A stretch of 64,000 bases of DNA from Nitrospiraceae bacterium (GCA_020632595.1 JACKFF010000006.1:1460-65459); one strand, 5' to 3'. Positions 7,595 to 63,716 are shown, numbered from the stretch's first letter. Notes: generated from the letters alone by a model not told the origin. A program made the numbers and translations.

Positions 7595-7948
7595 TTAATT
7601 GAAGGCCAGGAAACGGTCGCATCCGTCGATGATGTTTGAGAGAATAACCAAGCCGCAAAAAGTCACTTCTTTGCCATACCCGTCAGTTGAGATGTGGTGT
7701 TGTTGGCATCCATAGGCGCACACAAATAGTTTCAGTCCGTTCTTCGCCAACTCCGAAAATCTCGGGTCTTCTAGGTTTTTGACTCCCTCATCAATAAAAT
7801 ACAAATAGGTATCCACCTTATTAGCTAACGCGGTTTTGGAGAGGTGGTAGACTGTCTCTGCATTGGGATGTTCGGGTGAGGTTGAGAGCAGGAGGCCTAA
7901 TTTTTTGTTGGCGAGAGAAGGATTGGCTATATTAGTGGTGGATTCCAT
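7595..7948 (-). CDS. DsrE/DsrF (TusD)-like sulfur-relay family protein
   Basis: 117 aa. The pattern LLLSTSP...VDTYLYFIDEGV...LFVCAYGC resembles the DsrE fold with a conserved Cys. Assignment is from memory. Confidence 0.55.
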   Translation of the reverse strand: MESTTNIANPSLANKKLGLLLSTSPEHPNAETVYHLSKTALANKVDTYLYFIDEGVKNLEDPRFSELAKNGLKLFVCAYGCQQHHISTDGYGKEVTFCGLVILSNIIDGCDRFLAFN

Positions 7949-8114
7949 AGGAGAAACTGTCTGTATGATAAGGTTTTACGACTGTTTATAGGTGGAATGA
8001 GCTTGGCTGTCAAGCGAATACTCAGAAGGGATCCCTTGCTTGACGTCCTTTTTCCTCTGTCTTTATAATTTACTGATTTTCAAGAGAAATTTTCATCTCT
8101 GATTATTTTTGACG

Positions 8115-8618
8115 ATGGCAAATCTTACGCATTTTAATGAGTCCGGACGGGCTCGAATGGTGGATGTGACGGACAAGTCTCCAACCGAGCGTGTGGCGGT
8201 TGCAGAGGGGAAAGTGTTTGTCTTGCCGGAAACCCTTGAAAAAATTCTTGCAGGTCGAATTACGAAGGGTGATGTGCTGGCCGTGGCTCAGGTAGCCGGT
8301 GTGATGGGGGCCAAACGGACCCCGGATCTGATCCCAATGTGCCATCCCTTACTTCTCACAGGAGTGGATGTCGACTTCCAAGAAGACTCCCACCCTAATT
8401 CTGACGGACGGTGTGTTATTACGATTGTCGCAACGGTGAAAACCACTGGAAATACCGGAGTGGAAATGGAGGCCATGACAGCTGTTTCCGTGGCAGCTCT
8501 GACGATTTATGATATGTGTAAGGCCGTAGATAAAGGCATGGAGTTTGGAGAGATCGCCCTGGTTTCAAAATCCGGGGGAAAGTCAGGCACGTATGTCCGT
8601 GGTCGACAAAGCGGGTAG
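8115..8618 (+). CDS. moaC: cyclic pyranopterin monophosphate synthase MoaC
   Basis: [58 protein letters not shown]. An alternative TTG start lies at 8109. Confidence 0.9.
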
Positions 8619-8665
8619 GAACGATGATGACCATTCTTCGAGCTTGGTCATGGGAGTTTTAAATT

Positions 8666-8926
8666 GTGAAGATTAAATTATTCGGGATGTTGAAGACCAT
8701 GATTCCCGGTGGGAAGGATTTAGAAGTGGCCTTTTCCGAAGGTGAACAGGTTAAGGATCTGGTTCATGCCATACAGAGGGAATATCCTCAGGTTGGTGAA
8801 TTGCTCGAAAAGAAAAAAGTGCTGGTGTCGGTGAATCAAGAAATCGCTCATTGGGACACGGTGCTGGATACGGCTGATGAGGTCGCATTATTGCCTCCCT
8901 TTGCGGGAGGATCAGGCGAATTATGA
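8666..8926 (+). CDS. moaD: molybdopterin synthase sulfur carrier MoaD (ThiS/MoaD fold) with a 4-residue tail after the Gly-Gly
   Basis: 86 aa ending ...ALLPPFAGGSGEL, located between moaC and moaE. GTG start. Confidence 0.75.
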   Translation: MKIKLFGMLKTMIPGGKDLEVAFSEGEQVKDLVHAIQREYPQVGELLEKKKVLVSVNQEIAHWDTVLDTADEVALLPPFAGGSGEL

Positions 8927-8948
8927 TCTCAGGAGAAAGGGCAATCCA

Positions 8949-9392
8949 ATGGCTGTTGAATTAGAAGAAAGCATGCTGGTTCGGGTGCAACTGGAAAATT
9001 TTTCCATTGATGAAGAATTGGATCGAGTGCGGTCACGGTCCCGTCGAATCGGGGGAATTGCCATGTTTTTGGGTACGGCTCGTGATCGCTCCAAGGGTCG
9101 AGACGTGAGTTCCATGAGTTTTGATCACTACGAAGGGATGGCCCAGAAAAAGCTCAAAGAAATCCGAGAACAGGCACTTCGTGATTTTGCCATTATTGAG
9201 GCATTGGTCCTGCATCGCTATGGTCCCATTGAAATTGGTGAAAATATTGTGCTGATCATCGTTGGGGCTGAACATCGTGCTGATGCGTTTAAGGCTTGCC
9301 AATGGTGTATCGATGAACTCAAGAAAATTACTCCAATCTGGAAAATGGAAACGACGCCTGAAGGCGAAGTGTGGGTGGAGGAACACCCATAA
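8949..9392 (+). CDS. moaE: molybdopterin synthase catalytic subunit MoaE
   Basis: GGIAMFLGTARD...HYEGMA...VGAEHRADAFKACQWCIDELKKITPIWK. ATG at 8949 was chosen over the long ORF start at 8877, which overlaps moaD. Confidence 0.85.
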   Translation: MAVELEESMLVRVQLENFSIDEELDRVRSRSRRIGGIAMFLGTARDRSKGRDVSSMSFDHYEGMAQKKLKEIREQALRDFAIIEALVLHRYGPIEIGENIVLIIVGAEHRADAFKACQWCIDELKKITPIWKMETTPEGEVWVEEHP

Positions 9393-10453
9393 TGGATGGG
9401 GGGGGAGCCGTGACTCTGCCGGAAGCGGTTAAAGATGTCTGGGGACGTCCCTTGCGATCCTTGCGGGTGTCAGTGACCGATCGATGCAATTTACGTTGTC
9501 AGTACTGTATGCCTGAGGAAAATTATGTGTGGCTTCCTCGGGAAAATCTGTTGACATTCGAAGAAATCGCCTTCCTGACGAATTTATTTTCCAATCGGGG
9601 AATTGATCGAGTTCGTATTACCGGCGGCGAACCTCTATTACGCAATAATGTCGCGGAACTCATCAAAATGCTTCGTCAAAACTCTCGCATTCACGATATT
9701 GCGATGACCACCAATGGGGTGTTGTTGAGCGAGCAGGCGCAGGCTCTTTTCGATGCCGGGCTCCATCGGGTCACGGTGAGTCTGGATACATTGAAGCCCG
9801 CGCGGTTTAAAGCACTGACTCGACGCGATACTCTGGACAGAGTGTTGGAAGGCATTGCTTCAGTGGGACGGGTCGGGTTCAAAGGGTTGAAGCTGGATAC
9901 GGTCGCCATGAAGGGGTACAACGAGGATGAAATTATTCCCTTGATTGAATACGGCAAGCAGGTCAACGGAGAAGTTCGTTTTATTGAATATATGGATGTC
10001 GGTGGAGCCAATGACTGGTCGGCGGAAAAGGTCCTTTCCCGGAAAGAGATCTTGAAAATGGTCGGTGAGTATTATGGTTCCGTCGAGCCGGTGGAGGAGG
10101 TCAGTTCGGCTCCTGCGCAGCGATTCCAGCTATCAGATGGCACTATATTTGGTATTATCTCTTCCACTACCGTGCCTTTCTGTTCGACATGTGACCGGAG
10201 TCGTCTGACGGCTGACGGGATGTGGTATTTGTGCTTGTATGCCAAAACCGGTGTTGACCTTCGCAAGCTCCTTCGAATGGAACGATCACGAGAAGATATT
10301 CTCTCCATCATACAGGCTGTCTGGGAAAACCGAAAAGATCGGGGTGCGGAAGAACGCAAAGAGCTTGAACAGGTCAGCGGTCGTGGCCGGTACATTGATA
10401 TTGAGCGGTTGCGCCAAGATCCACATTTGGAAATGCATGCAAGGGGTGGCTGA
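9392..10453 (+). CDS. moaA: GTP 3',8-cyclase MoaA (radical SAM)
   Basis: CNLRCQYCMP radical-SAM cluster, a C-terminal CSTCDRSRLTADG cluster, and a TAATG overlap with the moaE stop. Confidence 0.9.
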   Translation: MDGGGAVTLPEAVKDVWGRPLRSLRVSVTDRCNLRCQYCMPEENYVWLPRENLLTFEEIAFLTNLFSNRGIDRVRITGGEPLLRNNVAELIKMLRQNSRIHDIAMTTNGVLLSEQAQALFDAGLHRVTVSLDTLKPARFKALTRRDTLDRVLEGIASVGRVGFKGLKLDTVAMKGYNEDEIIPLIEYGKQVNGEVRFIEYMDVGGANDWSAEKVLSRKEILKMVGEYYGSVEPVEEVSSAPAQRFQLSDGTIFGIISSTTVPFCSTCDRSRLTADGMWYLCLYAKTGVDLRKLLRMERSREDILSIIQAVWENRKDRGAEERKELEQVSGRGRYIDIERLRQDPHLEMHARGG

Positions 10454-10724
10454 TCCCCCGCGTTTTCTCCTTATTCCATGTCGGCTCCACCTGCTGCCAA
10501 TACACCCGAATGGTCTGGGTGGAAGAGTCGGCTACCTTAATCGATTCTTGCCGGGTCAACCTTCCTATGCTAATGTCGCGTCGTGATCGAAGACTGTGTC
10601 GGAGTTCATGATTCCTGGTTGTGTTCTTTCCCTGCCTTTTTCGCATTTTCTCTAGCTCAGCCAGATCTGTATCTAGGTTCGCGTGCGGTGCGTTTATGAG
10701 AGAAGCTTAAGGATAGACTGATTT

Positions 10725-51168: not shown

Positions 51169-53274
51169 ATGGCAGTTGATCTTTCACGGTTTCAAGAGTC
51201 ATTTTTTACTGAATCCGCAGAACATGTCGAAACCATCGAATCCGGTTTGTTGGCGTTAGAGCAACGTCCGAACGACCTGGACTTATTGAACCGAATTTTT
51301 CGGGGCGCTCATTCGATTAAAGGCAATGCGGGGATGTTTCATTTTACGGCCATTGCCGAGTTGACTCACAAAATGGAAAACATTCTGGATGACCTCCGGA
51401 ATGAAAAAATGCCGGTGACCCCTCACATCATCGATGTGCTGTTACGGGCGCTGGACGGATTAAAAAACCTTTTGGATGCGGCGCAGGGAGGTGAGGCAGC
51501 AGATGAGGCGGCCATTCACGTCCTAGAAGGTGAGCTGGATGCCTGTCAGAAAGGAAGGCCCGCTTCTGCACAGGAGGGGGCTTTTGCTGAAACCGGTCCC
51601 CAGGCTTTTCCACTTCAAGCCGCCACGTGGCGAAGGGTCCAGATTGATTGGAGTGCCTTGCCGGAATTATTTCAACGAGGGATGGATCCCGCCCAGATTT
51701 TCAAGGAACTGCATGAGTTGGGTATGGTGAAGACGCTGCATGTGCGAACCGACGGTCTTCCGGCTTTGGATGCACTCGATCCAGAACGGTGTTATCTCGG
51801 TTGGAGGGTGGAATTGGAAACGGATGCTCCTATCGCCCAGATCGAGGAGGTGTTTGCGTTTGTCCGAGATGGGAGCGAGTTAGCCATCATCGATTGCGCA
51901 CCGAAAAAACCGGAACCCTATAAACGGGTGGGGGATATTCTGGTGGAAGAAGGCGTGGTGACTCCGGAGCAAATCGCCGAAAGCCTGGCCAAGCAAAAGC
52001 CTCTTGGCGAAATTCTGGTGGAAGAGAAAAAGGCGTCTCCCCAACAAGTCCATCAAGCGCTGCAGAAGCAGCAGCAATTGAAAAAAAATGAGGTGGCATC
52101 TATTCGGGTCGATACGGAAAAGATCGATAAATTAATCAATCTGGTGGGGGAATTGGTGATTACGCAATCGATGATTACCGACCTGAGTGAGAAGTTTACC
52201 CTCGCGCAGCTCCCGGTTCTCCAGGAACGGATAACCCAATTGGAACGTAATACCCGGGAGATACAAGAACGGGTCATGTCCATTCGAATGATGCCGATCG
52301 GAAGTGCCTTCCACCGATTCCCGCGGTTGGTTCGGGATCTCGCAGGGAAAAGCGGCAAGCAGATTCAATTGGTCATGTCAGGAGAGGAAACCGAGTTGGA
52401 TAAAACGCTGATCGAGGCGATTGGCGACCCGCTCACCCATCTGGTTCGCAATTCAGCCGATCATGGGTTGGAGTTACCCGAAGAACGGGTGGCTCAAGGC
52501 AAACCGGAACGAGGAACCATTCGTCTCCATGCGTATCACGATGGCGGCAATATTTGTATTGCCGTGGAGGATGACGGGCGAGGGCTGAACCGGGAAAAGA
52601 TCATTAAAAAAGCCATCGAAAAAGGGATCATTGCCGATGGCAGCAATATGTCGGATGAAGCCGTGTATCAACTGATTTTTCGGCCTGGATTTTCCACGGC
52701 AGAGACCATCACCGATGTGTCAGGTCGAGGGGTGGGGATGGATGTGGTGAAGCGGAATATCGAGGGTCTTGGCGGGTCAGTGGACATTCAGAGCACGATG
52801 GGAAAAGGTTCTCGCCTCACGCTGAAATTGCCGCTTACGCTGGCCATTATTGACGGGATGACCGTCCGGGTCGGTCAGGATAACTACATTATCCCGCTTA
52901 TTGCGGTCACCGAATCCATTCGCCCTAAACCCAATGAGTTGCAACGGATTGTGGGAAAAGGCGAGGTGGTCAATCTTCGTGGAGAATGGGTGCCGGTGGT
53001 CAAGCTCTATGAGGCGTTTGCCCTCACGCCAGACTTTACCGATCCCTCGCAGGCTTTGTTGGTGATCGTGGAAACCGATGGCCGGCGATTGGCCGTGCTC
53101 GTGGATGAACTGACGGGGCAACAACAAGTGGTCATTAAGAGTTTGGAACAAAATTATCGCAAGGTCGAGGCTATTTCCGGAGCCACCATTCTGGGGGACG
53201 GACAGGTCGCGTTGATTTTGGATGTGCCGGGATTGGCCAAATTGGCACGGGTTGGCCACATTGCGGCGGCATAA
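51169..53274 (+). CDS. cheA: chemotaxis histidine kinase CheA
   Basis: HPt FRGAHSIKGNAGMF, dimerisation and HATPase domains (HLVRNSADHG, DDGRGL, GRGVGMDVV), and a CheW-like C-terminus. Confidence 0.95.
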   Translation: MAVDLSRFQESFFTESAEHVETIESGLLALEQRPNDLDLLNRIFRGAHSIKGNAGMFHFTAIAELTHKMENILDDLRNEKMPVTPHIIDVLLRALDGLKNLLDAAQGGEAADEAAIHVLEGELDACQKGRPASAQEGAFAETGPQAFPLQAATWRRVQIDWSALPELFQRGMDPAQIFKELHELGMVKTLHVRTDGLPALDALDPERCYLGWRVELETDAPIAQIEEVFAFVRDGSELAIIDCAPKKPEPYKRVGDILVEEGVVTPEQIAESLAKQKPLGEILVEEKKASPQQVHQALQKQQQLKKNEVASIRVDTEKIDKLINLVGELVITQSMITDLSEKFTLAQLPVLQERITQLERNTREIQERVMSIRMMPIGSAFHRFPRLVRDLAGKSGKQIQLVMSGEETELDKTLIEAIGDPLTHLVRNSADHGLELPEERVAQGKPERGTIRLHAYHDGGNICIAVEDDGRGLNREKIIKKAIEKGIIADGSNMSDEAVYQLIFRPGFSTAETITDVSGRGVGMDVVKRNIEGLGGSVDIQSTMGKGSRLTLKLPLTLAIIDGMTVRVGQDNYIIPLIAVTESIRPKPNELQRIVGKGEVVNLRGEWVPVVKLYEAFALTPDFTDPSQALLVIVETDGRRLAVLVDELTGQQQVVIKSLEQNYRKVEAISGATILGDGQVALILDVPGLAKLARVGHIAAA

Positions 53275-53417: not shown

Positions 53418-53957
53418 ATGACCACCGCAACGGCTGAACCGACAGAACAACGCTCGATTCGAACGACGTATGCCAGCGACGATCAACAATATCTGACCTT
53501 CAATCTGGCGGATGAATATTACGGAGTGGATATTCTGAAAGTACAGGAGATTAAGGGATACACCACGGTGACCAGGATCCCCAATACCCCTGACTTTCTT
53601 AAAGGGGTGCTCAATCTTCGGGGCACAATTGTGCCCATTGTGGATCTTCGCATGAAATTCGGCATGGGGGTGACCGAACCCACGTCGTTCACCGTGGTGG
53701 TTGTGGTCAATGTCCGGAATCGTGTGATGGGCTTTCTGGTTGATGCGGTGTCTGATGTGTTGGATATGAATGCCAAGGATATTCAGGCCCCTCCGGACAT
53801 GGGCACCTCGGTCGATGTCACGTTTATCGCCGGCATCGGTAATGCCCAGGATCGCTTAGTGACCCTGTTGGATATTGATCGGGTTCTCACGGAGGAGGAA
53901 GTCGTCGTCGTGGAAAACATTCAAGACTTGGAAGAAAAACCTGAGGTCCATGACTGA
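53418..53957 (+). CDS. cheW: chemotaxis coupling protein CheW
   Basis: YLTFNLADEYYGVDILKVQEIKGY...NLRGTIVPIVDLR. Confidence 0.9.
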   Translation: MTTATAEPTEQRSIRTTYASDDQQYLTFNLADEYYGVDILKVQEIKGYTTVTRIPNTPDFLKGVLNLRGTIVPIVDLRMKFGMGVTEPTSFTVVVVVNVRNRVMGFLVDAVSDVLDMNAKDIQAPPDMGTSVDVTFIAGIGNAQDRLVTLLDIDRVLTEEEVVVVENIQDLEEKPEVHD

Positions 53958-54034: not shown

Positions 54035-56272
54035 ATGAACAGGATGGTGAACACAAATTTCAGTTTGGGGATTGCAACCAAGTTGGTGGTGTTGTTCGCC
54101 ATCTTTGGCATAGTGCCGATGGCCGCGGTGGGGTATTTAGGGGCTTCCGCTACGGGGGAAATGGAAACAGCCGCCGGACTGCGCGTGCAAGCGATGGCTG
54201 AGACCATTGGAGATAAAATCGACCGTAATTTATTCGAACGGTATGGGGATCCTCAATCCTTTGGTCTTAATAGGATCGTGGGTGAGCGCTACCATTGGTA
54301 CAGCAAGGAGAATAATGCGATAGCGAGTGCCATGAATCAATATGTCGCGACTTCCGGAATTTATTATTTGACGATATTGGTAGATCCTGCTGGAGATGTC
54401 ATGGCTGTGAACTCAAAGGATGCCAAAGGGAATCCGATCGACACCACGGCAATTTATTCAAAAAAATATACGGACGCTCCCTGGTTTAAGGCGGTGGAAG
54501 CGAAAGAATTTACCACAAGACAACCCTTTACGAGCCCCGGCAATGATACGGCGACCGGGACCTACATTGAAGACGTTCATGTCGATGAAGATGTGAAGTC
54601 GGTGTATTTGGGAGATGACGGGTTGACCTTGGGTTTTTCTGCTCCGGTGTATGTGGATGGCGATTTGATCGGGTATTGGACCAATCGGGTCAAATTTTCT
54701 TTGGTGGAAGAAATCGTGCAATCCGCTTATCAAGAGCTTAAAGGGGCCGGATGGATGGGGTCGGAAATTTCTCTGCTCGGAGATAAGGGGCAGGTCATCG
54801 TGGATTTTGATCCCTCCAATCAAGGCACAGAGGACATGACCCATGATTTTGAAAAGACGTTGTTTAAACTCAATCTGGCAGACAATGGAGTAGAAACGGC
54901 AAAATTCGCCGTTGCTGGAAAAACAGGCTATCAATTAGCCCTCCATGATGAGAAGAACATCTGGCAAATGGGTGGCTATACCCATCTGAAAGGCGCCTTA
55001 GGCTATCCGGGTATGAATTGGTCTGTCCTGGTGAGAGTTCCTAAAGCCGAAGCCACTGCTGCGGCCATTGCATTTAATCGAGATTTAACCATTACCGCCA
55101 TTATTTGTCTGGTTCTGATTTTGGTCGTTGGATTGTGGGTTGGTCGTCGTGGTGCAAATAATCTGGTTCAAATTAGCGAAGTGGCTCAACGGGCGGCCGA
55201 TGGAGATTTGAGTCGGCGGGTCACCGTGATGTCCAATGATGAATTGGGAACCATGGGCAAGGCGATGAATGTCATGTTGGATAATTTGGTGAGAGTGGTA
55301 TCGGAAGTCCGCCAGGCTGCGGAACATGTCTCTATCGCATCAGGTGAAATCACCCAAGGTAATGAAGATCTCTCGCAACGCACCTCGGCTCAGGCAGGCG
55401 CCTTGGAGGAGACCAGCGCGTCGATGGAAGAGATGACGTCCACCATCAAGCAAAATGCCGATAACGCCAAGCAGGCCAACCAATTAGCGGTGGCCGCCCG
55501 GGAAGTGGCAGAGAAGGGGGGCGCGGTCACGGACAAGGCTGTGGTGGCCATGGATGAGATTAATAAGAGCAGCAAGAAGATCGCGGATATTATTAACGTG
55601 ATCGACGAAATCGCGTTTCAGACAAACCTTTTGGCACTCAATGCTGCCGTGGAAGCTGCACGCGCAGGTGAACAAGGCCGGGGTTTTGCTGTGGTGGCCT
55701 CGGAAGTGCGAAATCTGGCACAACGTTCGGCCTCGGCTGCCAAGGAGATCAAGACACTGATCAATGAATCGGTGCAAAAAGTTGGTGACGGCAGCGAGTT
55801 AGTGAATCGCTCGGGCCAGACGCTGGGCGAGATTGTGAATTCGGTTAAACGAGTCACGGATATTATTTCGGAAATCAGTGCGGCCTCCCAGGAGCAGGCT
55901 GCGGGGATCGATCAGGTGAACAAGTCGGTGATGCAGATGGATCAGGGCACGCAGCAGAATGCGGCCTTGGTAGAGGAAGCTACGTCGGCTTCCCAATCCA
56001 TGAAGCAGCAAGCGACTGAACTGTTGAATCAAGTCGCATTTTTTAAATTAGAAGATACAGAACAAAAACGGGTTGCAGGGACACAACCCGGATCGGGAGC
56101 CAAGGTTGCGCTTTCAAGTGGCAATAATTCCTCCGCCATGAGTAAGCCTTTACATTCAGTGAAGGGTGTCCTCCCTCCAAAGGCCACGGCGAAGACTCAA
56201 CCGGTTGGCGTGGGCAGTTCGAATGGCCATGACCGCCGTCAACGTCAGGATGATTTTTTTGAAGAGTTTTAG
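54035..56272 (+). CDS. methyl-accepting chemotaxis protein with a ~300-aa periplasmic (Cache-like?) domain and HAMP
   Basis: Two TMs, HAMP ([19 protein letters not shown]), the signalling domain, and a C-terminal DDFFEEF. Confidence 0.9.
55379..56047 (+). repeat. 669-nt signalling-domain block, copy 1 (paralogous to 57367-58035)
   Basis: Encoded peptides are almost identical ([55 protein letters not shown]...). DNA differs mostly at synonymous sites. Confidence 0.9.
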
Positions 56273-56410
56273 AAGACGTGACGGGTCAATCGTGAGGGGA
56301 GAGACGAAATGACAGAAAAGAGGGAGCCTGATGGCGTTGCCTTTTCGGGCATCCCGGCCGGTTGGTAGGGGGGATCCATCCTACGCCTTACGGTTCACCC
56401 CTTACGCGGG
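56273..56410 (+). repeat. intergenic hairpin element (between the two large MCP genes)
   Basis: AAGACGTGACGGGTCAATCGTGAGGGGAGAGACG ... CATCCTACGCCTTACGGTTCACCCCTTACGCGGG. Confidence 0.6.
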
Positions 56411-56460: not shown

Positions 56461-58269
56461 ATGGGTAAAGTATGGAACTCAATAGGCATCGGTCCAAAGG
56501 TGGTGATGACTATTATGGTGGTCTTTTCAAGTTTACTTGCAGGGGGAGCGTATTTGCTCGGACAGCAATTGCATTCCGATCTTGAACGGGTCTTGTCCGA
56601 TCAGGCGTATATTGTTCAAAAGCAAATTGAGGTCACTCGTGCCTATGTGACCAAAGAGTTTGTGGTGAAAGCCAAGGCGGCTGGGATGAATACCGGGGTT
56701 GACCATAGTGCTCCCGATACGGTTCCCTTTCCGGCCACATTTGCTCGTGAAACCTCTGAAATATTGGCTGAGGAAGGCGTGTTTAATGCCAGGATCGTGA
56801 GTCTCTCGCCCCTGAATCCCAAAAATGCTCCGCAAGATTCCTTTGAGAAAGACGCCCTAGCTGCCCTGGCTGCCGGCCAAAAAGAATTTACCAGAAACGA
56901 TACCGTGAATGGGAAAATGATGTTCCGCCGTGCGACCCAGGATTTGGCGACGGTCCAAGCCTGCATCGGCTGTCATGAGGGCAAAAAAATCGGGGAAATG
57001 CTGGGAGCTGTATCGGTACAGATTCCCATGGATGGTCCCGCTGCCCAATTACAAGGGAATCTCAGTAATATGTATATGGGGATTCTGGCCGTGGGCTTGT
57101 TGATGATGGGGCTGTTGTATCTGATGATTGCGAAGTTGGTGGTCAAGCCGATGAAGAGTCTGGAGTCCATGGCGGAGCGAGCCAAGGAAGGAGATCTCAC
57201 CGGTCGGGCCAGCGTGAACAGTCAGGATGAAATCGGTCGAACCAGTGAATCGTTTAATATGATGTTTGACCGGGTGAGTGAAGTCATTGGGTCTGTCAAA
57301 ACAGCTGTTTCCGGCATTACGACCGGGACTTCCGAGATAAATGCAGGAACCTCCGATCTTGCCGGGCGAACCTCGGCGCAAGCAGGAGCCCTGGAAGAAA
57401 CCAGTGCGTCCATGGAAGAGATGACCTCTACCATTAAACAGAATGCGGATAACGCCAAACAGGCGAACCAATTGGCGGTGGCCGCCCGGGAAGTGGCGGA
57501 GAAGGGTGGCGCGGTCACGGACAAGGCCGTGGAGGCCATGGATGAAATCAATAAGAGCAGCAAGAAGATCGCGGATATTATTAATGTGATCGACGAAATC
57601 GCGTTTCAAACGAATCTCTTAGCTTTGAATGCAGCGGTGGAAGCGGCACGGGCGGGCGAGCAGGGACGAGGTTTTGCGGTAGTGGCTTCGGAAGTGCGAA
57701 ATCTGGCGCAACGTTCTGCCACGGCGGCCAAGGAGATTAAGACGCTGATCAACGAATCGGTGCAAAAAGTTGGCGGTGGCAGTGAGTTGGTCAATCGCTC
57801 GGGCCAGACGCTGGCCGAAATTGTGAACTCGGTCAAACGGGTCACGGATATTATTTCAGAAATCAGTGCGGCTTCCCAGGAGCAGGCGGCGGGGATTGAT
57901 CAAGTGAACAAGGCGGTGATGCAGATGGACCAAGGCACACAACAAAATGCGGCCTTGGTGGAACAGGCGACTTCAGCGTCCCAATCGATGGCGCAACAAG
58001 CTGAGGATCTGTTGCGGCAGGTCGAGTTTTTCAAGGTCCAGACTGAGTTCGGGACTCAACGTTCTGAGCCTATGGCAAAAACCGGCTCATCCGTTCACGC
58101 TCAATCGACGAGCGGAACGGGGTCTCAATATTCTCGTGCGGCCTCGTCTATGACTGGTAAAGCTCAGGGAAAGCATTTCCCCACTAAAAAAGAGGTCGCT
58201 GTGGGTGTTGGGAGTTCGGGGTCCAACGGGCATAAAAAGCCAGGGGATGATTTTTTTGAAGAATTTTAG
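56461..58269 (+). CDS. methyl-accepting chemotaxis protein whose periplasmic domain is a Tll0287/DUF3365-like c-type heme module
   Basis: TM1, a ~190-aa periplasmic region with CIGCH (CxxCH) followed by [10 protein letters not shown]2, HAMP ([18 protein letters not shown]), the signalling domain, and a DDFFEEF tail. Confidence 0.85.
57367..58035 (+). repeat. 669-nt signalling-domain block, copy 2
   Basis: See 55379-56047. Confidence 0.9.
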
Positions 58270-58416
58270 AAGACTGTTCATAACTTGGACCTGGCGAAAA
58301 GGGGAAATCATGACTCCCACTTCAACGCCTGTGAAATTCTCTCCTAAAGTTGGATCCATTTTTCCCGAAAACCTGGGGAGGATTCTATGAGTGTTTATTA
58401 ACATTGTGTTTAAACC

Positions 58417-58497: not shown

Positions 58498-59043
58498 ATG
58501 ATTATGAGGAGATGGACTGTATTTTCACTAATGTTTGTCATGTTAGGTCTTGGCTTTGCCTTGGTTGCGCCGCTAGGTCTAGCCGCAGACGCGGCTAAGG
58601 AAATGGCGGCCAAGTACATCTTGGCTACCTCTAAGGCTGCCAGAACCGTGTATGTCAAGGGGATTATGGCCGACGCGACCAAAGGTGGAATGAAACCGTC
58701 TGAAGATTGGGTGAAGGATGACCACGGCATGATGCTGCCGGCTCAGTTCGTGAAAGAACTCGGGAAAGAAATAAAGGAGTTTGATTTGTCTTTGGTTGGG
58801 ACCGATCCCTTGTATGCCTCCAATGCCGCGAAAAGTGCCAAGGAAAAGGACATGCTCGCGGAATTAGCCAAAGGAAAAGAAAAAGTATTAGTGGCGGAAG
58901 ATGGCGGAGTGACGGTCGGTATGTCGGCCGATTATGCTATCGCGGACATTTGTGCTGATTGCCATAACTCACACCCAAAAACCACCAAAAAAGATTGGAA
59001 GAAGGGTGATTTTATGGGAGCCATTGTGGTGCGACTGAGATAA
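58498..59043 (+). CDS. periplasmic Tll0287/DUF3365-like c-type heme protein
   Basis: Signal peptide (WTVFSLMFVMLGLGFALVAPLGLAADA), CADCH heme-binding motif, then GAIVVRL. GGAGGAGG precedes the start (ATG 58498 or 58504). Confidence 0.7.
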   Translation: MIMRRWTVFSLMFVMLGLGFALVAPLGLAADAAKEMAAKYILATSKAARTVYVKGIMADATKGGMKPSEDWVKDDHGMMLPAQFVKELGKEIKEFDLSLVGTDPLYASNAAKSAKEKDMLAELAKGKEKVLVAEDGGVTVGMSADYAIADICADCHNSHPKTTKKDWKKGDFMGAIVVRLR

Positions 59044-59108
59044 TAAAGTTTTAAGATCATTTTCTTGAGAGAGGCTGGGAGGGCTTAGATGCTTTCCTCG
59101 CCTTTCTC
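58931..59108 (+). repeat. direct repeat A (3' end of the heme-protein gene plus downstream hairpin)
   Basis: Aligns by eye at ~80% with 61514-61697, including a long identical core AAAAAAGATTGGAAGAAGGGTGATTTTATGGGAGCCATTGT. Confidence 0.8.
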
Positions 59109-59725
59109 CTCTTCTTCCTTTCCTTATATCCTAAAAAATCTCGGGCTGAAATTCCCCGGGTATGGGTGTGCCTAGTGGGTAAAGGATTGAACCTATGGTC
59201 TTTTGTTTAACCCCTCAATTTTCCCCCTTGATCTAAAATATAATCTGTCAGGCAGTTTCCCTTTAGTTGAACGAGAGACTGCGCCCATTAAGTTCCATAC
59301 CCGGCCAGAGGATCGAACGGAAGTCTTCGCATTGGGGATATATTTCGAGCCAATATTCTGGATTTCTTTCCAACCAGCTATACCATTGAGGTCAGCGAGA
59401 GGCAGGAAAGTTCAGGCGATCATCAAAATCCTGCAGCCACTCGGTATATAAGAATTTGAACGACCCGGCCGGAATGCCATTGGGCGGAAACTTATACACC
59501 CGGTGCAGGCAAAATCCCTACCTCTTGCGAAAGCGAAACCAATCAGACCGTCCCAATCTTGCCTCCATACAAGACAAGGAGTATCCGTTCCCGCTAATCA
59601 AAGGAAGGAGGTGATGCAGGGAATTCTTATTGGCAAGAGGGGGGGAATCGTCATATACTCTCGTTCTATTCGTTTTCTTTTGTTCTCGTGTGTCGCTTGT
59701 CTCACTTTCAAAACAAGGAGGTTCT

Positions 59726-60466
59726 ATGAGCCGAAAGAAATTTCTCTCTGCAGTTTTTTTCCTGATTGCTCTCCTCGCGCCTGTCATAGTATTTGCAGGG
59801 GCCGATGTGGTTGAAACAGGCCGCCTCCTGGCTATTCTGCTTGACGCCGGGCGTGGGGCAGTCGCGGCCAACCAGCCCCTGATCAATGATGCGAGCAAGG
59901 GAGACAAGGGGTTCACGCCTGATGTGTTTGCCCAGCAACTCGCGGAGAAATTTAAGGCCCGAGCCAGCGTGGATTTGGGTAATCTGAAAGGGAGCGGCGT
60001 TCCCGAGATGGCGCAAAAGCTGCTGCTGGAACTCGTTGAAGCCGCAAAAAAGACGGTCGCCAACAACCAGGATAAAATCAATAAGCCCGGTGTCGCGTAT
60101 AAGGGCTTTACACCGGCCCATTTCGGGACGCAGACCGCTACTTTGTTCAGCGAAAAAAGCGGTATTTACATGAAACAAACGACAACAGATGCGTTACTCC
60201 GAAATCCGAAGAATAAGGCAGATGACTTTGAGTCCGGGATGATGAAAAAATTCGGCGATTCCGCTTATCCACGCCAGGGGGACAAGATCGCGAGCGAGAC
60301 AACCGACGGAGCCGTGCGTGTGATGTTGCCCTTGTTCTATGGGAAAGGTTGCATGGGTTGCCACGGTGGTCCCAAAGGTGAAATGGATGTTTCCGGCTAC
60401 AAAAAAGAAGGGGCCAAGGAAGGCGACCTTGGAGGGGCAGTCAGCGTGAAGCTTCCCGCCAAATAA
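59726..60466 (+). CDS. periplasmic Tll0287/DUF3365-like c-type heme protein (second paralog)
   Basis: Signal peptide (FLSAVFFLIALLAPVIVFAGA), CMGCH motif, then GGAVSVKLP. AAGGAGG lies upstream of ATG 59726. Confidence 0.7.
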   Translation: MSRKKFLSAVFFLIALLAPVIVFAGADVVETGRLLAILLDAGRGAVAANQPLINDASKGDKGFTPDVFAQQLAEKFKARASVDLGNLKGSGVPEMAQKLLLELVEAAKKTVANNQDKINKPGVAYKGFTPAHFGTQTATLFSEKSGIYMKQTTTDALLRNPKNKADDFESGMMKKFGDSAYPRQGDKIASETTDGAVRVMLPLFYGKGCMGCHGGPKGEMDVSGYKKEGAKEGDLGGAVSVKLPAK

Positions 60467-60525
60467 GCAAATCCTATTATTAAATCCTAAGTGCCCGGGA
60501 GGAACTAATTTAAGATTTTTTGTGG

Positions 60526-60554
60526 GCTTCCGGAAGTCTGAGTGCTTCCGGAAG
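60526..60554. promoter_or_regulatory. two copies of GCTTCCGGAAG (contains the 10-bp palindrome CTTCCGGAAG), 18 nt apart, upstream of cld
   Basis: 60526-60536 and 60544-60554, ~145 nt upstream of ATG 60697. Confidence 0.4.
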
Positions 60555-60696
60555 CAAGTGGGAACACCTTCGAATTTATGAGAGCCAAAAATCTTTCTTA
60601 GGTGGGGATTCTGAAGGATTGTCAGCAAATCCCTTACCCCAAAGAACCCATGACTCTCCATAAATAAATAAGGAAAATAAATAAGGAGAAAAATGT

Positions 60697-61461
60697 ATGC
60701 GCGCCTTAGCATCCCTGTTGTTCATTGCGGTTTTGACTGTTGTGTCCTTTGGCTTGACATGGGCGGCCGATGCCCCTATTTTTGGCACCTTTGCCCTGTT
60801 TGAGGTGGATAAAGATTGGGGAAATTTGTCGGTGGAAGAAAGGCAAAAAGGAGGGGAGGAGGCGAAAGCCCTGTTGGAATCAATCAAAAATCAGGTCACC
60901 GTGGATGGCTATTGGACCTATGGGTTGACAACGGAATCTCATTTTATGCTTCGGCTGCATTCCGCCGACCTCAAAGCCAATCAGCAATTAATGACTCAAC
61001 TCCGGAGTACTCGCCTCGGCCGACATTTGAATTTGGAATACACCGTCAGTGGAGTGACCAAAAGTTTAAATTATGCGCCGGATTTTCCGGAATTGTTGGA
61101 AAAGTTGAAAGCAGCGAAATACAAAGGAGATCCGTCGACATATGCAATTATGATCCCGGTTCGGAAAAATGCCGAATGGTGGAATCTGCCTAAAGAAGAA
61201 CGTGTGGCGCTGATGAAAGAGCATACCATTCCCACTGTGGCCTATTTAGAAACAGTCAAACGGAAATTGTACCATTCCACCGGGATTTCAGACGTGGATT
61301 TTTTAACATATTTTGAAACAAATAGTTTGATTGAATTCAATGATCTGGTCATTGCGTTGCGGATGGTTCGGGAGGATAGCTTCAATGTTCAGCTCGGAGA
61401 GCCGACGATCATTGGCACACTGAAAAACTGGAATGAGATTGTGGATCTCCTTATGAAATAG
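60697..61461 (+). CDS. cld: chlorite dismutase (Nitrospira-type, periplasmic)
   Basis: Signal peptide ending TWA/AD. YAIMIPVRKNAEWWNLPKEERVALMKEHT...TVKRKLYHSTGISDVDFLTYFET matches the remembered N. defluvii Cld. The proximal His (EHT) and the distal Arg 13 residues later (VKRK) are present. Confidence 0.85.
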   Translation: MRALASLLFIAVLTVVSFGLTWAADAPIFGTFALFEVDKDWGNLSVEERQKGGEEAKALLESIKNQVTVDGYWTYGLTTESHFMLRLHSADLKANQQLMTQLRSTRLGRHLNLEYTVSGVTKSLNYAPDFPELLEKLKAAKYKGDPSTYAIMIPVRKNAEWWNLPKEERVALMKEHTIPTVAYLETVKRKLYHSTGISDVDFLTYFETNSLIEFNDLVIALRMVREDSFNVQLGEPTIIGTLKNWNEIVDLLMK

Positions 61462-61513
61462 ATGGGTCCCAGTTCGATCAGATGGATTCATGGTTTTGAA
61501 TAATCATTTTGGG

Positions 61514-61630
61514 GATTATATTGCCTGAAGGTGACAATTGTGCCGATTGCCATAACAAACACCCCAAAACTACCAAAAAAGATTGGAAGAAGGGTGATTT
61601 TATGGGAGCCATTGTTGTCAGACTGAAATA
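61514..61630 (+). pseudogene. remnant of a Tll0287-like heme-protein gene (C-terminal ~35 codons only)
   Basis: Reads ..GDNCADCHNKHPKTTKKDWKKGDFMGAIVVRLK*, a copy of the C-terminus of the 58498..59043 gene. No upstream coding continuation. Confidence 0.65.
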
Positions 61631-61697
61631 ATTTCGTTTTACGACCAATCGTCTTGAGAAAGGGCGGGGAGGGTATCACAACCTTCCTCGCCTTTTT
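61514..61697 (+). repeat. direct repeat B (partner of 58931-59108)
   Basis: See repeat A. Confidence 0.8.
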
Positions 61698-61699
61698 TT
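61663..61699 (+). terminator. rho-independent terminator
   Basis: GGCGGGGAGG / CCTTCCTCGCC stem (one bulge, two G-U pairs), 9-nt loop, T7 tail. Confidence 0.6.
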
Positions 61700-61749
61700 A
61701 TTCCCACCCCTGGGCTTCCCTTTTTTTTAAAAAAATTCCCTCCGGTCCT

Positions 61750-61776
61750 TAAATTCGATCATAGGTGTGCCGATAA
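61750..61776 (+). promoter_or_regulatory. sigma28 (FliA) promoter for cheR-cheD-cheB
   Basis: TAAA-N15-GCCGATAA, an exact match to the class-3 flagellar promoter consensus. ~390 nt upstream of the cheR ATG. Confidence 0.7.
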
Positions 61777-62168: not shown

Positions 62169-63008
62169 ATGATGACGGCAACGTTGACTGATAATGAATT
62201 TGAACAGTTTAAACACTTAATTTATCAGCAGGTCGGTATTACGCTCGATGCCCCAAAAAAAACGCTCTTAGTTTCTCGTTTGGGGAAACGGCTTCGGGAT
62301 CTTCACCTTTCCTCGTATCAGGCGTATTACGACTGTGTGAGCGGGAAAGGCGGGGAAGAAGAGTTGATGAAGTTGTTGGATCTTGTGTCAACGAATAAAA
62401 CTGATTTTTATCGGGAGCCTGTGCATTTTGATTTTCTCCGCGACCAGGTTCTTTCAGAGGTGCAATCGGCCAAGACCTTGAGAATTTGGTCTTCCGCGTC
62501 CTCTTCCGGGGAAGAACCCTATACGATTGCCATGACCCTGTCTGATGGCATTGCCGATATTAATCGATGGGACATCAAAATTCTCGCCTCCGATATTTCT
62601 ACGCGGGTATTGGCAAAGGCTTCCTCGGGTATCTATGAGGAAGAGCGGGTGAGTCAACTTCCCATTGATTTGGTGAAACGACATTTTCTCCGTGGGAAAG
62701 GCCCGCAAGCGGGAAAGCTGCAGGTGCGCCCTCAGATCGCGCGTCTTGTGGCCTTTCGACGGATAAATTTGATGGACCCGACCTTTCCTATACGGAGTCA
62801 ATTGGATGTAATCTTTTGTCGGAATGTTATGATTTATTTTGATCGTCCCACGCAAGCCAAACTCATGGAGAAGTTTTTCCGATATCTCCGCCCTGGTGGA
62901 TATTTGTTTATCGGACATTCAGAAAGTTTGCAGTGGATCGACCATCAATTTACATATCTGCGCCCGACCATTTATCAAAAACCGATCAGCGTGAAAAGTG
63001 AGGCGTAG
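62169..63008 (+). CDS. cheR: chemotaxis methyltransferase CheR
   Basis: FEQFKHLIYQQVGI...TDFYREP...IWSSASSSGEEPYTIAM...IFCRNVMIYFD. Confidence 0.9.
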   Translation: MMTATLTDNEFEQFKHLIYQQVGITLDAPKKTLLVSRLGKRLRDLHLSSYQAYYDCVSGKGGEEELMKLLDLVSTNKTDFYREPVHFDFLRDQVLSEVQSAKTLRIWSSASSSGEEPYTIAMTLSDGIADINRWDIKILASDISTRVLAKASSGIYEEERVSQLPIDLVKRHFLRGKGPQAGKLQVRPQIARLVAFRRINLMDPTFPIRSQLDVIFCRNVMIYFDRPTQAKLMEKFFRYLRPGGYLFIGHSESLQWIDHQFTYLRPTIYQKPISVKSEA

Positions 63009-63107: not shown

Positions 63108-63716
63108 ATGTCATCTACAGGATTGATGGAATTTGGGCATATTCGGCGAATGCAGGATACCCGCTTCCCCTACGAAGTGGCCGTCATTCTCCCAGGTGAA
63201 TATTTTGTAAGCCGGGAGCCCAAAGTCGTCTATACGGTATTAGGTTCCTGTATCTCAGTGTGTCTGCGAGATCCAGAAGCCGGCGTGGGAGGGATGAATC
63301 ATTTCATGTTAGCAGCTCCTTCCAATATTGAAGGACACGATAATTGGGCAGATTCGGGACGATACGGGAGCTTTGCCATGGAAATGCTGATGAACGATAT
63401 TTTCAAGCGCGGCGGAAAAAAAGACCGCCTCGAAGCGAAAGTCTTTGGCGGGGGAAAGATTTATGATGGCACCATCGATATTGGGGCCCAAAATGCCGCT
63501 TGGGCTCTCGCCTTTTTGGAACAGGAGGGTCTGTCGCCTATTAAAGCCGATGTCGGAGATGTCTGTCCTCGGAAGGTGTACTATTTCACCGATTCGGGAA
63601 AAGTGCTCATGAAAAAACTCGACCGTGTCGTGGCGAGTGCGATTGCGCAGGAGGAGGGGCAGTATCGGAAGAAACTTCAACATGCTCCTGTGCAGTCGGA
63701 CGTCACACTTTTTTGA
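63108..63716 (+). CDS. cheD: chemoreceptor glutamine deamidase CheD
   Basis: TVLGSCISVCLRDPEAGVGGMNHFMLA...KVFGGG. Confidence 0.9.
   Translation: MSSTGLMEFGHIRRMQDTRFPYEVAVILPGEYFVSREPKVVYTVLGSCISVCLRDPEAGVGGMNHFMLAAPSNIEGHDNWADSGRYGSFAMEMLMNDIFKRGGKKDRLEAKVFGGGKIYDGTIDIGAQNAAWALAFLEQEGLSPIKADVGDVCPRKVYYFTDSGKVLMKKLDRVVASAIAQEEGQYRKKLQHAPVQSDVTLF

Follow-up and report, generated by a model that had tools for sequence, protein, structure and literature searches.

Heme-containing Cache domains of the sCache_heme family, equivalent to the Tll0287-like domain, DUF3365 and PF11845, were characterized only in 2026, and their study proposes NO sensing for receptor-fused members and redox functions for stand-alone ones. 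The CXXCH motif of the family is 99% conserved, its fold is that of a Cache and not of a PAS domain, and about half of its members are stand-alone proteins (bioRxiv 10.64898/2026.02.01.703092; see also bioRxiv 10.64898/2026.05.25.727664). A receptor-type member without an axial Cys, from P. azotoformans, was found to bind NO tightly and to form no O2 complex, and a stand-alone Cys/His member from P. putida behaves as a redox protein (bioRxiv 10.64898/2026.02.01.703092); a HAMP-only receptor of the family signals via a partner kinase that is encoded separately. Here we analyzed a 64,000-nt stretch of DNA from a Nitrospiraceae bacterium (GCA_020632595.1 JACKFF010000006.1:1460-65459), in whose chemotaxis (che) gene cluster both described architectures, fused to HAMP and the signaling domain of a methyl-accepting chemotaxis protein (MCP) and stand-alone, stand side by side. 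Two stand-alone members, which we call g1 and g2, and a chlorite dismutase (Cld), an enzyme regarded as a common feature of nitrite oxidizers (PMC12342949), are encoded there between the heme-carrying receptor MCP_B and cheR.

This locus is a clade-specific variant built from known parts, the most interesting of which is g1. We consider it fairly probable that it consists of two layers, a native g1 and a later, relocated insert of cld and g2 that is a passenger. In what follows, the whole 64-kb stretch is termed the window; coordinates without a prefix refer to it, and the features so listed are on its plus strand unless noted otherwise. Loci from other genomes are denoted by L and a number.

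Genes of the locus

The gene for MCP_B (56461-58269; 602 aa, CIGCH motif) is followed by genes for three presumably exported proteins: the sCache_heme proteins g1 (58504-59043; 179 aa, CADCH) and g2 (59726-60466; 246 aa, CMGCH), and a clade-1 Cld (60697-61461; 254 aa). An earlier annotation made from the sequence alone, hereafter the original prediction, had placed three such proteins between the heme-MCP and the cheR unit, and Pfam confirmed their identities at or near the positions it gave. All of g1, g2 and MCP_B share an above-threshold match to PF11845 (E = 8e-11, 2.6e-20 and 3.9e-16, with 43, 73.7 and 60.2 bits, respectively, at a cut-off of 24.1), with the CXXCH in an insertion before the last strand, and a covalently bound c-heme is predicted for each from this motif. 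In MCP_B, the Tll0287-like domain precedes HAMP (2e-11) and MCPsignal (2e-56) domains, and hydrophobic segments at residues ~13-33 and ~205-228, seen on reading the sequence, complete the order of a heme-c chemoreceptor: transmembrane segment, periplasmic sCache_heme domain, transmembrane segment, HAMP, MCP signaling domain. By eye, the N-termini of g1 (MRRWTVFSLMFVMLGLGFALVAPLGLA/ADA) and g2 (MSRKKFLSAVFFLIALLAPVIVFA/GAD) are Sec-like, and on inspection the N-terminus of all three proteins shows a basic residue, then a run of hydrophobic residues and a site that resembles AxA, in agreement with their predicted export. The g2 protein has an extra N-terminal helical region of ~100 aa.

AlphaFold2 (AF2) models of g1 (pLDDT 77) and g2 (pLDDT 86) had Tll0287 of Thermosynechococcus (5B82) as their top PDB fold match (probability 1.00 for both; E = 1.8e-3 and 2e-5, respectively; TM-scores 0.43-0.62), followed by Cache ligand-binding domains. 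It was the fold search alone that connected them to 5B82, to which they are only 13-15% identical: when g1, g2, a profile of g2 and the sensor of MCP_B were compared with PDB chains by phmmer/hmmsearch, neither Tll0287 nor the Geobacter receptor GSU0582 was hit, and no NCBIfam model matched g1 or g2. Counting the g1 remnant described below, the locus carries four copies of one sensor fold, as had been proposed. The accompanying claim that g1 and g2 are paralogs of the MCP's own sensor holds at the family level but not in the sense of recent copies, since the MCP_B sensor is only 27-31% identical to g1 and 22-31% to g2, and g1 and g2 match each other with a BLASTP E of about 0.05. The three full domains are ancient family members, each with its own orthologous series, and only the remnant is a recent duplicate. 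The series are as follows: the sensor part of MCP_B has orthologs in L087 and L089 at 67-86% identity, the best 120 of 202 g1 homologs are 60-97% identical (all from Nitrospirales where named), and the top 120 of 763 g2 homologs are 65-94% identical across Nitrospira lineages. The CXXCH is invariant in 31 g1 homologs and in 34 g2 homologs; His74 and Met77 of g1 are likewise invariant in the 31 sequences, and g2 has no other invariant His, Met or Cys.

The Cld matched PF06778 (E = 7e-33) and the PDB sequences 3q08, 2vxh and 3nn1 (E = 5e-63 to 3e-57), which are the enzymes of Dechloromonas, Azospira and Ca. Nitrospira defluvii. Across 13 homologs there is no variation at its proximal His176 and its distal Arg189, which are separated by 13 residues, or at Lys157 and Trp161/162, so that the claim of an intact active-site pair was borne out. 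An identical Cld protein in the same gene order is encoded by the chromosome of Nitrospira sp. Ecomares 2.1 (OZ224219.1), a lineage IVa marine nitrite oxidizer sequenced in PMC12342949, and by several contigs of metagenome-assembled genomes (MAGs).

The che-linked gene g1

Relatives that carry no g2 or cld at this site keep g1 in place. The gene order MCP-g1-cheR-cheD-cheB occurs in L087 (MAG AMR_MDS_0955), L182 and L090, and in L089, L181 and L092 a DUF420 gene stands between g1 and cheR, again with no g2 or cld there; L092 (Nitrospira sp. M1) has two tandem g1-like genes. Because this MCP-g1-(DUF420)-cheR order exists in relatives without g2 and cld at the site, g1 is an old, native, motility-linked member of the marine Nitrospira che locus. 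In L090 (Ca. Nitronereus thalassa, 7662-10543), g1 follows MCP_A in a genome that has no heme-MCP, so any partner of g1 need not be MCP_B. The most divergent ortholog (60% identity; L183:5882-9613) is not part of a che cluster; it comes right after the gene for a FliA-like sigma factor, with csrA close by, in surroundings that still belong to the flagellar regulon.

The DUF420 gene, which encodes a membrane protein, fills the slot between g1 and cheR in several insert-free relatives (L089:10810-11280, L092:10888-11352, L181:7931-8398, L093:1497-1979); DUF420 is the family of the oxidase-assembly factor CtaM. A perfect sigma-28 motif is found 5' of the DUF420 gene in L089, and the gene therefore probably heads the cheR operon there.

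Given its fixed position beside MCP genes, g1 would serve chemotaxis input, as a co-sensor or a redox mediator. The original prediction had speculated that the soluble paralogs are partners of the MCP, and for g1 the conserved synteny strengthens this idea. Judged by the characterized members of its family, MCP_B would most likely be a chemoreceptor for NO or for redox state, and we infer that g1 most likely acts in the same input pathway, as a soluble co-sensor or redox mediator for an adjacent MCP.

The g1 remnant, a probable insertion scar

Downstream of cld, the 3' end of g1 occurs a second time. Repeat search and alignment delimited a direct repeat of ~160 nt whose first copy (58945-59105) comprises the 3' end of g1 and the hairpin that follows it, and whose second copy contains a pseudogene scar, the g1 remnant (61533-61630), reading CADCHNKHPKTTKKDWKKGDFMGAIVVRLK up to the stop codon and running on as repeat to 61695. 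Positions 61533-61647 are 87% identical to 58945-59059, the similarity continues through the hairpin (59073-59105 versus 61663-61695), and degraded similarity to g1 begins at ~61515; a g1-like remnant had been predicted near 61514. In OZ224219.1, a 40-aa open reading frame (ORF) of the remnant carries the NCBI label "c-type heme family protein". The remnants of seven lineages all end in GTTGTCAGACTGAAATAA (VVRLK before the stop), a signature closer to that of outgroup g1 genes and distinct from GTGGTGCGACTGAGATAA (VVRLR before the stop), with which the full-length g1 copies in these genomes terminate. Several of the remnants are also damaged, in different ways: that of L007 has lost its CXXCH, those of L010 and L015 the heme-ligand His, and in addition the L015 remnant has gained a stop codon and the L010 remnant has lost its own. 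This combination of a shared 3' signature and damaged remnants indicates that a duplication or insertion happened once, long ago, and that the remnants have decayed since. For the 3' end, a conversion of the remnant by g1 or the reverse was considered and rejected, since the remnant-specific signature has persisted there. Over the final ~57 nt of the remnant (61574-61630, and the equivalents in L007, L008 and L100), species differ by only 2-10%, as against 15-20% in the flanks, while the CXXCH part decays.

The slot itself has a variable content. In the spacer between g1 and g2, which from ~59214 on is common to L008, L015 and L100, there is a relic of ALS_ss_C, the C-terminal domain of the acetolactate-synthase small subunit (ilvH), at ~59266-59450; with Pfam, the corresponding ORF in L100 (8269-8586) scored 32.7 bits (cut-off 23.2) and the window copy only 12 bits. 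This relic looks like a leftover from some unrelated gene that was brought into the slot. A fragment of an IS3-type transposase (HTH_21 and rve) lies on the minus strand between g1 and g2 of L100 (7266-7859) and shows mobile-element activity at this spot in a sister lineage. A minus-strand ORF-like stretch at 59230-59500 had no family match.

Transcription signals

A hairpin 3' of g1 (59067-59108, …CGCCUUUCUCCUCUUCU; predicted RNA folding energy -29.8 kcal/mol, z = -3.75) is without a U-tract; in the window and in L007 it is followed by CUUUCUCCUCUUCU, and the boundary of the repeat falls in the U-tract. The remnant is followed by an intrinsic terminator with a 20-bp stem and U7 (61655-61700; -32.2 kcal/mol, z = -6.8), and L007 has an equivalent hairpin and U7 after its own remnant. 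In the insert-free L087 and L090, a strong hairpin with U7-8 occurs directly 3' of g1. We read the hairpin 3' of g1 as what is probably a weakened terminator, and that at 61655-61700 as the presumed original g1 terminator, now positioned 3' of cld.

The sigma-28 promoter of the cheR-cheD-cheB unit (TAAATTCGATCATAGGTGTGCCGATAA, 61750-61776) sits downstream of the remnant terminator. It fits the consensus TAAA-N15-GCCGATAA perfectly and is the only such match in the window, with none expected from shuffled sequences, in line with the promoter originally proposed before cheR; comparable motifs stand 5' of cheR in L100 and L090 and 5' of DUF420-cheR in L089. With no U-tract after g1 and a terminator after the remnant, g1, g2 (where present) and cld would form one transcript, separate from that of cheRDB, and it is plausible from this anatomy that they are co-transcribed up to the original g1 terminator. 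A motif scan also found a weak sigma-28-like motif 5' of g1 (58345-58371; TAAA-N15-CCCGAAAA, 2 mismatches), which L001 and L007 retain in full and L016 and L008 in part, and of which L087 shows no counterpart; such two-mismatch matches were no commoner than in shuffles, which means that this motif is not above chance. A generic scan for sigma-70 promoters and terminators gave counts equal to those of shuffles.

Home loci of cld and g2

A profile of Cld was run against one genome per species, and the proteins encoded in the window were then placed by tblastn, in a set of 80 loci. The gene resides in the che locus in the window and L001-L006, and in L007, L008, L010, L015, L016 and L100. The arrangement of the slot varies among them: g1-cld-remnant with no g2 (L007, L016), g1-g2-cld-remnant (L008), cld-remnant-cheR (L010), cheY-g2-cld-remnant (L015, 7545-10914) and, in the JGI contig L100, g1-IS fragment-g2-cld-remnant. 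In the L015 MAG, cheA, cheW, both MCP genes and g1 are missing, by deletion or by mis-assembly at a contig end.

In five further species (L009, L011, L012 from Nitrospira sp. T9, L013 and L014), a cld at 76-83% identity occurs in another shared context: a gene for an Slp lipoprotein, a hypothetical gene, cld, a hypothetical gene, DUF1207, pyruvate dehydrogenase (PDH) E1/E2, an ankyrin gene and an HbpS-like gene, with the DUF1207-PDH part absent from L013. Homology between the window DNA and these Slp-type loci is confined to 60683-61465, that is, to the coding sequence (CDS) plus ~15 nt with its ribosome-binding site. A metagenome scan with DUF1207 returned only Nitrospira contigs other than Ga0675950_000025, a 1-Mb contig with cld in its che locus, and in those contigs DUF1207 did not adjoin cld; the Slp context is not ancestral for all Nitrospira. 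Among the clds of other Nitrospirales, canonical Nitrospira and proteobacteria, none had che or Tll0287-like neighbors except two proteobacterial loci, L067 and L069, in which che or MCP genes lie at a distance of 6-9 kb. In L067 (10001-20670; a Phaeospirillum MAG), cheA, cheW and an MCP gene start 6 kb downstream of cld; within the 80 loci, this is the one further case in which cld and a cheA-cheW-MCP set occur together, and it is probably due to chance in an MCP-rich genome. An origin of cld from a (per)chlorate-reduction island was rejected, as no reductase genes (pcrABCD/clrABC) are nearby and the called genes within ±10 kb are all che or signaling genes.

Orthologs of g2 adjoin a VIT1 gene in L094, L096 and L098, with neither g1 nor cld; the genes 3' of VIT1-g2 are AdoHcyase, MetK and ResB/CcsA in L094 and L098, and others in L096. 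The window DNA resembles these VIT1-type loci only within 59685-60456, and what L007 and L016 are missing is exactly the g2 segment (~59250-60610). We infer that g2 is a core periplasmic heme protein of Nitrospira.

The idea that the three genes form one cassette did not survive this comparison, as each is found apart from the others in related genomes: g1 alone in seven loci (L087, L089, L090, L092, L181, L182, L183), g1 and cld without g2 in L007 and L016, cld without g1 or g2 in L009 and L011-L014, and g2 alone in L094, L096 and L098. For cld and g2, the synteny comparison instead gave the pattern that the original prediction had named as the sign of hitch-hiking, in that a single assembly, DAORAP01, to which L087 and L014 both belong by their shared WGS prefix, contains an insert-free che cluster (L087) and a cld among unrelated neighbors (L014).

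Neighboring chemotaxis genes

Gene calls and Pfam placed cheA at 51169-53274 and cheW at 53418-53957, followed by MCP_A (54035-56272), which has no Pfam sensor-domain match. On the other side of the slot are cheR (62169-63008; 279 aa, Pfam CheR 2e-62) and cheD (63108-63716; Pfam CheD 8e-25). The two MCP genes share an 86%-identical stretch of 300 nt in the signaling domain (55379-55678 versus 57367-57666) and have nearly identical 3' ends (56248-56277 versus 58245-58274) that encode the same C-terminal tail, …DDFFEEF. This suggests a recent duplication or gene conversion of their cytoplasmic part, the sensor domains being unrelated. After cheB comes another, divergent cheR, which shares 26-31% identity with the first; MAG contigs carry it at full length (276 aa; L002:9252-10082), and in Ecomares 2.1 it was called as a 94-aa fragment (L001:14490-14774).

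Origin of the locus

In the two-layer history that we favor, the native layer would be the main che operon of marine lineage-IV Nitrospira, with MCP_B and g1 right before cheR, in which MCP_B would sense NO or the periplasmic redox state, as judged from the characterized sCache_heme receptors. The derived layer would have arisen in the ancestor of the Ecomares-2.1 clade, when cld entered the g1 transcription unit as a bare CDS with its ribosome-binding site; g2, coming from a different locus, may have entered the slot together with cld or later. A single insertion event would have duplicated ~160 nt of the g1 3' end with the terminator hairpin, leaving an intact g1 with a hairpin devoid of its U-tract, the insert, a decaying remnant with the original hairpin and U7, and then the sigma-28 cheR promoter. 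The homology of both cld and g2 to their home loci ends within about 15-40 nt of each CDS, and the plasticity of the slot is apparent from the IS3 fragment in L100, the ilvH relic, the DUF420 insertions in L089, L092 and L181 and the tandem g1 of L092. The Cld of the locus is best read as the usual periplasmic chlorite-detoxifying enzyme of nitrite oxidizers, judging from its sequence, and its placement as a relocation into a recombination-prone slot and not as a signaling role; no evidence for a part of Cld in signaling was found, and a literature search returned nothing linking Cld to chemotaxis in Nitrospira.

Several points weigh against this history or parts of it. A neighbor-joining tree of Cld proteins leaves the che-type and Slp-type groups unseparated (bootstrap 11-50%), and a transfer from a relative may account for the insert in place of a relocation within the genome. 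Co-transcription is deduced from hairpin and U-tract anatomy, and the loss of the U-tract coincides with the repeat boundary, so that selection is not required to account for it. For g1, synteny and family membership suggest the role of a sensor or mediator, but its invariant His74 and Met77 are just as compatible with an ordinary electron-transfer cytochrome whose heme is six-coordinate. Finally, speaking against pure accident, at least seven species-level lineages have preserved the insert and its catalytic residues, and the genes that colonized the slot are all heme- or oxidase-related. As the insert has been stably inherited in these lineages and probably shares the transcript of g1, it may be co-expressed with this chemotaxis-linked gene.

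A history of neutral hitch-hiking only, in which the g1-cheR spacer is an insertion hotspot and nothing in it is chemotactic, g1 included, seems to us unlikely. Such a hotspot would be in keeping with the IS3 fragment, the ilvH relic, the decaying remnant and the variable slot content, and g1 could be an ordinary periplasmic cytochrome, since redox and not sensory roles have been proposed for stand-alone sCache_heme proteins, a six-coordinate heme could be formed with His74 and Met77, and the L183 ortholog is not in a che cluster. Yet g1 is maintained between MCP and cheR over a range of 60-97% protein identity, even in a genome that has no heme-MCP, and in L183 it still directly follows the FliA-like sigma factor, near csrA; so stable a linkage to motility genes is unexpected for an unrelated cytochrome.

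Less likely still is a functional recruitment, in which g1, g2 and Cld would make up a periplasmic accessory module of the heme-MCP, with the paralogs binding to it or exchanging electrons with it and Cld shaping the local signal through O2 from chlorite or shielding the sensor hemes against oxidants, chlorite among them. In its favor, one and the same slot received two genes whose home loci differ, inside the g1 transcription unit and upstream of its terminator, and at least seven lineages have retained this arrangement with the active-site residues intact; the further genes seen in the slot, a g1 duplicate and DUF420, have a heme or oxidase connection as well. However, in sister species the same che cluster does without g2 and cld, the slot is without g2 in L007 and L016, and the families of g2 and Cld are conserved far beyond the clade in non-che contexts, which implies core functions independent of chemotaxis. 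The idea of chlorite-derived O2 as a signal is further weakened by the finding that the sCache_heme proteins tested so far form no stable O2 complexes.

That the che-embedded state is ancestral, the sisters having lost the insert by recombination between the g1 3' repeats while cld moved out to the Slp locus, is very improbable: direct repeats would permit such a precise, scar-free excision, and the Cld tree, which leaves the two groups unseparated, weakly places L015 with Slp-type sequences, but outgroups at growing distance (L089, L181, L182, L092, L090) all have no cld in the che locus, and the remnant is in itself the mark of an insertion or duplication in a g1 that was already there.

The two-layer history offers a clean and datable example of single genes spliced into an existing transcription unit as a CDS with its ribosome-binding site, in which the duplicated 3' end and terminator mark the junction and sister species keep the states "before" and "after". 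The striking neighborhood of cld is in these terms a clade-specific relocation and no evidence for a new role. For the sCache_heme family, g1 is a natural test case across the divide between sensory and redox members, being stand-alone, having no axial Cys and being stably wired into the che operon of an organism whose metabolism centers on the chemistry of nitrite and NO. We put forward, as a speculation that may well prove wrong, that g1, in its fixed place between MCP genes and cheR in marine lineage-IV Nitrospira, is a soluble periplasmic co-receptor of the heme-Cache type, which would be the first such protein in a chemotaxis pathway, and that it informs a neighboring MCP of NO or of the redox state in the pool of periplasmic cytochromes, with g2 and Cld recruited in the Ecomares-2.1 clade as co-expressed tuners or protectors of the sensor hemes. 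If this were true, g1 would give a nitrite oxidizer an NO- or energy-taxis input.

Comparison with known systems

The Cld of the window shares its long clade-1 form, apparent signal peptide, proximal His and distal Arg with NdCld of Ca. Nitrospira defluvii (3NN1) and with the enzymes of perchlorate reducers (3Q08, 2VXH). It differs from them in being ~40% identical to canonical Nitrospira Cld, in having no pcr or clr reductase genes nearby and in its position in a che operon, which is specific to one subclade.

The architecture of MCP_B resembles that of GSU0582 and GSU0935 of Geobacter sulfurreducens, MCPs with one covalent c-heme in the periplasmic domain that have been proposed as redox or gas sensors (PMC3460858, PMC8396549). 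In contrast to these, MCP_B is accompanied by soluble paralogs in the same locus. Within the sCache_heme family, Tll0287 and the P. putida redox subgroup have an axial Cys, whereas g1, g2 and the MCP_B sensor, as read from their sequences, have no Cys outside the CXXCH; in this they are like the sensor-type, NO-binding CHH receptor of P. azotoformans. The words "operon" and "neighbo" do not occur in the text of the sCache_heme preprint, and a g1 fixed in a che operon is thus a context that goes unmentioned there.

In functional terms, two groups of described systems come closest to g1. Soluble periplasmic binding proteins mediate indirect chemoreception, as the maltose-binding protein (MBP) does with Tar, and stand-alone heme sensors can be encoded beside their signaling partner, as H-NOX is with a histidine kinase. 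In both of these, as for g1, a small soluble protein of a sensor fold is encoded beside a possible transducer, a likeness that in the case of g1 consists of the conserved adjacency only. They differ in location and cofactor: H-NOX is cytoplasmic and carries heme b, and the classical binding proteins are free of cofactors, whereas g1 is a periplasmic Cache protein with a predicted c-heme.

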